Origin: a virus
Taxonomy: Duplodnaviria > Caudoviricetes
Virus record (IMG/VR): IMGVR_UViG_3300044831_000040
Coordinates: 2,680 to 66,679 of that record
Length of the DNA stretch: 64,000 bases
Strand: one strand, 5' to 3'
Shown here one piece after another: positions 17,356 to 17,456 of this stretch. Every line of letters begins with the position of its first letter. Position 1 is the stretch's first letter. Under the pieces are notes generated by a model that saw nothing but the letters and a program-made list of their open reading frames with translations, had not been told where the DNA came from and ran no database searches. The position numbers and the translations under genes are program-made.

Positions 17356-17456
17356 CGGATCGTGGTGTAATGCTGCACGGTCCCCATGAGACGGCTTTCT
17401 TCGGAGAACCGTGTCAGGGGGATTAGGCCAGGAAGAAGCACCTGGCGATCCGACCA
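17356..17456 (+). ncRNA. CCA-ended tRNA mimic with extended rod replacing the anticodon arm
   Basis: CGGATCG/CGATCCG-A-CCA; D-stem GTGT/GCAC; rod GTCCCC-A-TGA-G-ACGG-C-TTTC-TTCG-GAGA-A-CCGT-G-TCA-GGGGGAT; T-stem CCAGG/CCTGG with loop AAGAAGCA. Confidence 0.7.

Follow-up and report, generated by a model that had tools for sequence, protein, structure and literature searches.

A tRNA-like element with a sealed rod in place of the anticodon arm in the tRNA array of an uncultured soil phage

The tRNA array of the phage described here contains a 101-base element (17356-17456, + strand) that has the frame of a tRNA and ends in CCA, and in which a long hairpin stands in the place of the anticodon arm. 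We asked what such an element could be: an RNA with a function of its own, or a by-product of rearrangement in the array. The window (the whole stretch of DNA analysed, 64 kb) belongs to a 66.7-kb IMG/VR virus record, estimated at ~46% of the genome. The genes in this record include those for a baseplate J protein, VanY-type and amidase cell-wall enzymes, and SNF2- and DEAD-type helicases. The major capsid protein matches PHROG 2522 (3.6e-99) and has ~59% identity to the capsid proteins of cluster C mycobacteriophages (Myrna, Phabba, HyRo) and large Gordonia and Rhodococcus myophages, and the sequencing runs that contain the sequence are soil metagenomes. Based on the capsid relatives, the gene content and the soil runs, the source is an uncultured soil myophage of ~150 kb that is distant kin of the cluster C mycobacteriophages. 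Judging from these relatives, its host is likely actinobacterial.

ARAGORN identified 36 tRNA genes from 12973 to 20598, every one of them on the + strand. The array also contains four HNH-type endonuclease genes (PHROG matches of 1e-36 to 2e-16):

14046-14843 (+): HNH-type endonuclease gene
16285-17124 (+): HNH-type endonuclease gene, also with an HTH_7-like motif; its reading frame ends inside tRNA-Phe
18497-18994 (+): HNH-type endonuclease gene
19829-20278 (+): HNH-type endonuclease gene

L002, the complete relative closest to the phage, has ~600 bp between the capsid gene and the next shared gene where the window has ~10.8 kb (12330-23180); it lacks the whole tRNA island and, with it, a 479-aa minus-strand gene. 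Most of the IMG/VR relatives detected through the capsid protein have no tRNA array after the capsid gene, and two have arrays, of ~37 and ~41 tRNAs. The 479-aa protein has >1300 homologues elsewhere, some with HATPase_c_3, and homologues at 95% and 84% identity in Logan assemblies. No IMG/VR relatives of the array's endonuclease gene or of the flanking 479-aa gene were found. Three tRNAs in the arrays of relatives are unusual (L039 16949-17024; L087 14324-14397, - strand; L088 14701-14772, - strand): one has the four-base anticodon gcaa, one reads amber (cta; ARAGORN calls it "Pyl"), and one is a tRNA-Cys whose anticodon is aca.

We folded the element and assigned its parts as follows, with the two tRNA genes that flank it:

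17278-17354 (+): upstream neighbour, tRNA-Ile(GAU); discriminator at 17353, with two bases between it and C1 of the element
17356-17362 (+): acceptor stem, 5' strand, starting with C1; 7 Watson-Crick pairs with 17446-17452, pair probabilities 0.59-1.0
17363-17364 (+): 2-nt linker UG with the U8 equivalent kept, at tRNA-like spacing (from sequence)
17365-17378 (+): D-arm equivalent, stem GUGU/GCAC with the 6-nt loop AAUGCU; helix probability ~0.37
17371-17374 (+): UGCU of the D loop, Watson-Crick complement of AGCA in the T loop (17437-17440) (from sequence)
17381-17422 (+): rod where the anticodon arm would be, with 19 layers of which 16 are pairs, pair probabilities 0.92-1.0
17400-17403 (+): UUCG tetraloop closed by C-G, in place of a 7-nt anticodon loop
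17423-17427 (+): variable-region equivalent, UUAGG, 5 nt (from sequence)
17428-17445 (+): T-arm equivalent, stem CCAGG/CCUGG with the 8-nt loop AAGAAGCA; helix probability ~0.43
17446-17452 (+): acceptor stem, 3' strand, paired with 17356-17362
17453-17456 (+): discriminator A73 (17453) and genome-encoded CCA (17454-17456)
17458-17532 (+): downstream neighbour, tRNA-Lys(CUU); a single base separates it from the CCA of the element

The junctions between these parts have the spacing of a class I tRNA, with a 2-nt linker, a 5-nt variable region and a T stem that abuts the acceptor strand. The acceptor pairs are, in order, C-G, G-C, G-C, A-U, U-A, C-G and G-C. The D stem (17365-17368 with 17375-17378) has three Watson-Crick pairs and one U.G, and the T stem (17428-17432 with 17441-17445) has five Watson-Crick pairs, including the equivalent of G53-C61. 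The rod is built of blocks of 5, 3, 4 and 4 pairs separated by A/G, G/G and C/A oppositions. Altogether, 21 of the 21 pairs in the acceptor, D, T and rod-base helices are standard, and U8, A14 and the G53-C61 equivalent are further remnants of a tRNA. Beyond these features the loops have nothing of a tRNA: the D loop keeps A14 and lacks G18 and G19, and the T loop lacks T54-psi55-C56.

These results bear out the structure that an earlier, sequence-only reading had described, including the 7-bp acceptor stem, A73 and encoded CCA, and the 4-bp D and 5-bp T stems, each of which sequence and folding placed at the positions given above. That reading had also noticed that both elbow loops were changed together, as the D loop AAUGCU without GG and the non-canonical T loop confirm. 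Its "~20-bp UUCG-capped rod" is indeed a long imperfect helix with a UUCG loop; its length was stated slightly generously, since the helix has 19 layers of which 16 are pairs.

The element is more stable than expected from its composition. Its minimum free energy is -50.0 kcal/mol, compared to -32.6 ± 3.7 kcal/mol for dinucleotide shuffles (z = -4.73), and 1 of 200 shuffles was equally stable. The stability is not evenly spread over the fold. In the thermodynamic ensemble the rod pairs have probabilities of 0.92-1.0 and the D and T helices have probabilities of ~0.4, because an alternative fold competes in which GGUGU (17364-17368) pairs with GCACC (17438-17442) to give one long irregular hairpin. 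It is possible that the complementary UGCU and AGCA of the two loops pair with each other in the cloverleaf, and this could replace the lost elbow contact of G18/G19 with psi55/C56. A 4-nt Watson-Crick run between random loops of the sizes of these D and T loops has p ~0.05.

A loose cloverleaf descriptor had 8 matches on the + strand and 12 on the - strand outside the tRNAs, so a match to the descriptor alone proves little. The case against chance is made instead by the combination of the flush placement, the ACCA end, the 4-bp D stem and the 16-pair rod. There is also a 37-codon frame at 17386-17496 (+) that begins with an ATG in the rod and ends with a TAA within the tRNA-Lys(CUU) anticodon loop. 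Nothing supports this frame as a gene, and we treated it as due to chance.

The element is not a canonical tRNA. It shares with one the 7-bp acceptor stem, U8, A14, the G53-C61 equivalent, the junction spacing and the N73-CCA end. A decoding tRNA of the RF00005 type was rejected on account of the 19-layer rod with a 4-nt UUCG loop and no 7-nt anticodon loop, and a canonical elbow on account of the missing G18 G19 and T54-psi55-C56 and the 8-nt T loop. Over 17356-17456, RF00005 gave no match at its gathering score, nor at E<=10 in a 221-base search, and none of all 4227 Rfam families at E<=10 calls the element. ARAGORN in its bacterial modes (standard, intron, low-threshold and tmRNA) made no call on the element, and its metazoan-mitochondrial mode gave only spurious ones. 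Because a sealed hairpin replaces the arm that reads codons, the element is unable to decode. The proposal that this is a tRNA-shaped gene incapable of decoding thus held up, with the rod closed by UUCG and no anticodon found by ARAGORN.

Among the 36 called tRNAs of the array, two (Ile-UAU and Ser-CGA) have an encoded N73-CCA, in agreement with the suggestion that an encoded CCA is rare here. The combination of C1-G72 with A73 occurs elsewhere in the array only in three tRNA-Pro genes, and the acceptor end of the element is in this respect like theirs. Bacterial ProRS also depends on the anticodon bases G35 and G36, and the anticodon that would carry them is absent from the element. It had been suggested that the element could be charged. 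Because its only identity-like feature is the Pro-like C1-G72/A73 and the anticodon bases read by ProRS are absent, charging is possible in principle, is not indicated by the sequence and appears unlikely in the form suggested. We found no promoter-like or terminator-like site adjoining the element, which makes co-transcription with the array plausible.

We searched for homologues with a covariance model (R1) made from the element sequence and its cloverleaf. R1 scores 129 bits on the element itself and 41 bits on the opposite strand; the latter match is expected because the fold is near-palindromic. The capsid protein led to 279 related stretches in IMG/VR, and we retained 80 loci from these. 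No match to R1 at E<=1 was found in 51 whole related IMG/VR records (9 complete genomes). With filters off, R1 detected only ordinary tRNAs in the full tRNA arrays of two relatives, the best being a tRNA-Pro(UGG) at 22 bits, and a structural descriptor scan of the relatives' arrays revealed no other rod-type tRNA. In the cultured phages Myrna, HyRo, RedWattleHog, Finch and Skog, R1 gave two weak matches, both antisense inside coding genes.

Searches with the sequence alone were similarly negative. A "distant" blastn search of 50,697 phage records (GenBank) gave no match to the element. Three exact 18-mers (T-arm, D-arm and rod-tip) were compared to IMG/VR; two were blank and the third had 3 matches, over the 18-mer only. 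A pattern built on the loops had 4 matches in IMG/VR, all in AT-rich coding sequence, and a two-gap version of it had none in JGI metagenomes and one in GTDB genomes, inside coding sequence. Words from a nearby spacer (17753-17782) had no match in IMG/VR or JGI. Within the window, the element belongs to none of the array's repeat families, its global alignment to the neighbouring gap was not exceptional, and no significant antisense target of the rod was found.

The check for homologues with covariation that had been proposed therefore came back empty in the collections searched, a weak kind of blank. The missing homologues say little, because exact-pattern scans lose most relatives below ~95% identity and because the neighbouring island is equally unmatched. 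That the element is maintained rather than decaying is a conjecture argued wholly from within the element, by setting 21 of 21 core pairs against loops that are not tRNA-like; this comparison favours, only moderately, a structured RNA over a decaying pseudogene.

The sequencing runs provided information on variation at the site. A second soil run contains an identical copy of 17194-17460, with zero differences (Logan contigs), and there were no variants inside the element among the contigs aligned to the region. In a related strain (run X2), 494 other bases replace 17174-17482, a segment that holds tRNA-Ile(UAU), tRNA-Ile(GAU) and the element. The element is therefore not fixed at this site. 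None of the listed runs that contain the sequence is on record as RNA. Farther along in the X2 strain, the tRNA-Leu(CAG) region (17551-17627) differs at many bases and has indels, and the next 270 bases (17629-17900) have only 2 differences (17671 and 17717). This sharp drop in divergence suggests a recombination boundary at the end of tRNA-Leu(CAG) in that strain.

A second cloverleaf-like element lies at 17629-17706 (+), directly after tRNA-Leu(CAG). It has a minimum free energy of -34.1 (z = -2.8), and its fold comprises a helix of 8-10 bp that closes it, the linker UA and three small hairpins. Its closing helix consists of the same words as the rod base of 17356-17456 (UCCCCNUG / CAGGGGGA), and no further pair of this kind occurs in the window. 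The last hairpin of the second element and the next two bases repeat the 3' decamer of 17356-17456 (GAUCCGACCA). The second element has C1-G72 and A73 and lacks CCA. In the strains of runs X2 and X4 it has one difference (17671 C>T), which changes a G-C pair to G.U. Extra T-arm-like pieces are present in gaps of the array, which also contains other odd cloverleaf-like elements. The words common to 17629-17706 and 17356-17456 point to shuffling between the elements. Because the array is plainly a site of rearrangement, the helices of 17356-17456 could have been assembled by recombination instead of being kept by selection.

Several known RNAs resemble the element in part. The tRNA-like domain of tmRNA also has an acceptor with CCA, a T arm and a long helix that replaces the anticodon stem. 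In contrast to the element, tmRNA has G3.U70, a tag ORF, pseudoknots and a canonical T loop. We rejected tmRNA because the third acceptor pair of the element is G-C, there is no tag frame and there are no pseudoknots, and both Rfam and ARAGORN in tmRNA mode at lowered thresholds were negative. The sequence-only reading had likewise found no tag ORF, and the lack of G3.U70 is in line with it. In engineered tRNA scaffolds, a cargo helix replaces the anticodon arm, and the other three arms (acceptor, D and T) are retained so that the RNA is processed and stable; the canonical elbow loops stay as well. The element differs from them in being natural, in its non-canonical elbow loops and in a rod that matches no known motif.

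YrlA, a bacterial Y RNA with a tRNA-like domain, occurs in mycobacteria and in large phages that infect them (Chen et al. 2014, PMC4201824). The YrlA of M. smegmatis is cut by RNase P and has CCA added (PMC4201824). DusA and TruB modify the D and T arms of YrlA, which are tRNA-like, and a GNCGAAN0-1G motif is conserved in the family (PMC4201824). Both YrlA and the element are non-decoding tRNA mimics in form, with a long stem in the position of the anticodon arm. The topology is opposite: in YrlA the free ends are in the long Ro60-binding stem and the acceptor stem is closed by a loop (PMC4201824), whereas the element has its ends at the acceptor, a closed rod and non-canonical loops. There was no Y-RNA-type Rfam match in the element at E<=10. 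YrlA is encoded beside a Ro60 gene. In the 66.7-kb record, ~46% of the genome, we detected no match to a TROVE (Ro60) gene and no CCA-adding (PolyA_pol) or PTH2 gene.

The closest parallels in setting are the stable RNAs of T4 and T5. The T5 record (AY543070) annotates RNAI, RNAIII, RNA1 and RNA2H among tRNA and HNH genes, with the label "stable RNA" or, for RNA1, "tRNA-like stable RNA with unknown functions". Like the element, these genes are 100-170 nt long and lie close among the tRNA and HNH endonuclease genes of a phage. In RNAI the 5' and 3' ends pair and are followed by GCCA, and RNA1 has a tRNA frame with a long insert at the position of the anticodon arm. RNA1 differs from the element in keeping canonical D and T loops, and T5 differs from the source phage in host and phage lineage. 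In T4, rnaC (species 1, 139 nt) and rnaD (species 2, 119 nt) sit where the tRNA cluster ends, next to a gene for a homing endonuclease, and their function is as yet unknown (PMC9697503). rnaC has a canonical T arm and long hairpins. Unlike the element, neither rnaC nor rnaD has an encoded CCA in its annotated ends or a simple four-helix cloverleaf. The element has the setting of this class, in that it is a structured non-tRNA gene in a tRNA cluster, on the same strand, with homing endonuclease genes nearby. There is no sequence similarity between the element and the T4 and T5 stable RNAs (blastn, phage records), and R1 with filters off gave <=12.9 bits in the T4 and T5 regions, where the top matches were on ordinary tRNAs or unrelated sequence.

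We tentatively favor the view that the element is a non-decoding tRNA mimic that is processed and does work, and that it belongs in kind with T4 rnaC and rnaD and T5 RNAI and RNA1 without being homologous to them; we would put the chances of this view at somewhat less than even. On this view the element and the tRNA array would be transcribed as one precursor, in which RNase P would free the 5' end of the element at C17356. The RNase P cut of the next tRNA would leave an end in ...ACCA-U, and loss of one U would give a CCA-ended RNA of ~101 nt. This RNA would keep what readers of the acceptor end use (a 12-bp acceptor/T stack, A73 and a free CCA), its anticodon limb would be a stiff sealed hairpin of ~19 layers, and the canonical elbow would be replaced, possibly by 4 bp formed between D loop and T loop. 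The RNA would take no part in decoding. The candidate factors for it would be processing enzymes or, if the host is actinobacterial, CCA-end-modifying toxins. We judge the acceptor/T stack and CCA to be the likeliest site of action because they are the only canonical part of the element and the CCA is encoded. That the RNA acts as a mimic or competitor of a factor reading the tRNA acceptor end is the action that we think likeliest on this view; as a proposal on its own we regard it as unlikely.

A more particular version is that the element is an anti-defence decoy for a host toxin that modifies tRNA 3' ends. Enzymes of the toxSAS, MenT and AbiEii types are known in actinobacteria and their prophages. 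The RNA would present the upper half of a tRNA with its CCA on a rigid handle, with the elbow rewired by Watson-Crick pairs, and would soak up or misdirect the toxin while being invisible to anticodon nucleases, synthetases and the ribosome. We consider this version improbable. Several features count for an RNA gene: the hyperstable C(UUCG)G cap and the encoded CCA, the flush placement between two tRNAs, the junction spacing of a tRNA and the orientation shared with all 36 tRNAs. Against the mimic are the orphan status of the element, the replacement of its site in the X2 strain and the probabilities of only ~0.4 for the D and T helices.

The main rival to a working mimic is a functionless by-product, in which a tRNA gene, perhaps tRNA-Pro-like, was remodelled by recombination and hairpin-extending rearrangements; RNase P might still excise an RNA, which would have no function and would eventually be lost. 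We think this origin somewhat less probable than a working mimic, and several observations speak for it. The element was an orphan in every search, its site differs in the related X2 strain, and the 10.8-kb island around it is missing from the closest complete relative. The array has four HNH-type genes and other non-canonical tRNA-like pieces, and the rod-base words and 3' decamer shared with 17629-17706 speak of shuffling. A tRNA-Pro ancestry would fit the three tRNA-Pro genes, which alone share C1-G72/A73, and the tRNA-Pro(UGG) that was the best R1 match in a relative. However, zero mismatches in four core helices next to two entirely non-canonical loops speak against decay, because point-mutational drift that erased the loops should also have broken the stems, and for this reason we moderately favor a structured RNA over a decaying pseudogene. 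Two local hairpins exactly at the D and T positions are unlikely by chance, the three oppositions in the rod show that it is no fresh perfect inverted duplication, and the encoded CCA and UUCG cap have been kept.

The rod itself could instead be the working part, as a protein-binding or RNase III-type double-stranded hairpin carried on a natural tRNA scaffold whose frame would ensure excision and end protection. Such a role would fit a rod that is the most certain part of the fold (0.92-1.0) and whose three regularly spaced non-canonical oppositions could serve recognition, as well as elbow loops in which the features read by tRNA enzymes are not conserved. Nevertheless the rod has no match to a known motif or Rfam family and no significant antisense target in the window, and a mere scaffold would need neither the encoded CCA nor the Pro-like C1-G72/A73, so that we rate this role as a rather slim prospect. 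Much less probable still is an imperfect palindrome of 101 bases acting at the level of DNA, for example as a homing-endonuclease or recombination site. The reverse strand fits R1 with 41 bits, the outer 7 bp and the rod are each mutually complementary, and endonuclease genes are nearby; yet the middle segments are not complementary to each other and form their own hairpins at positions typical of a tRNA, and the strand-specific ACCA end and flush tRNA spacing fit a + strand RNA gene. Finally, the resemblance of the 5-bp rod base to an anticodon stem might indicate a decoding tRNA with a small removable intron in the anticodon loop, an explanation that we find scarcely credible. ARAGORN in intron mode was blank, also at lowered thresholds, the fold has no bulge-helix-bulge, the D and T loops are non-canonical as well, and the 32 nt between the stem halves are far too few for a group I intron. 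We know of no bacterial splicing route for an insert as short as 32 nt.

For 50 years phage tRNA clusters have been known to contain small stable tRNA-like RNAs, such as T4 rnaC and rnaD and those of T5, and a function has been assigned to none of them. The element is a very clean and minimal example, in which the acceptor/T stack and CCA are kept, the anticodon arm is sealed and the elbow loops are replaced. Should it prove to be expressed and stable, its possible partners would narrow to readers of the tRNA acceptor end, and it could serve as a simple probe of what such RNAs do, perhaps also against defences directed at tRNA ends. Should it be debris of rearrangement instead, it shows how tRNA arrays full of homing endonucleases generate new RNA folds.

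Two further observations concern the array itself. In the ARAGORN output, nearly all of its tRNA genes have a C directly after the discriminator, with the rest of CCA absent, and this may bear on 3' processing in the phage. At 19577-19659 (+) the window contains a probable tRNA with a long variable arm that neither ARAGORN nor Rfam called. The acceptor stem is 7 bp long, the T arm is canonical (loop UUCGAGC) and the D arm weak, and there is an extra arm; by its position the gene could be the Ser(GGA) that is found in a relative's array between Ser-GCU and Ser-CGA.
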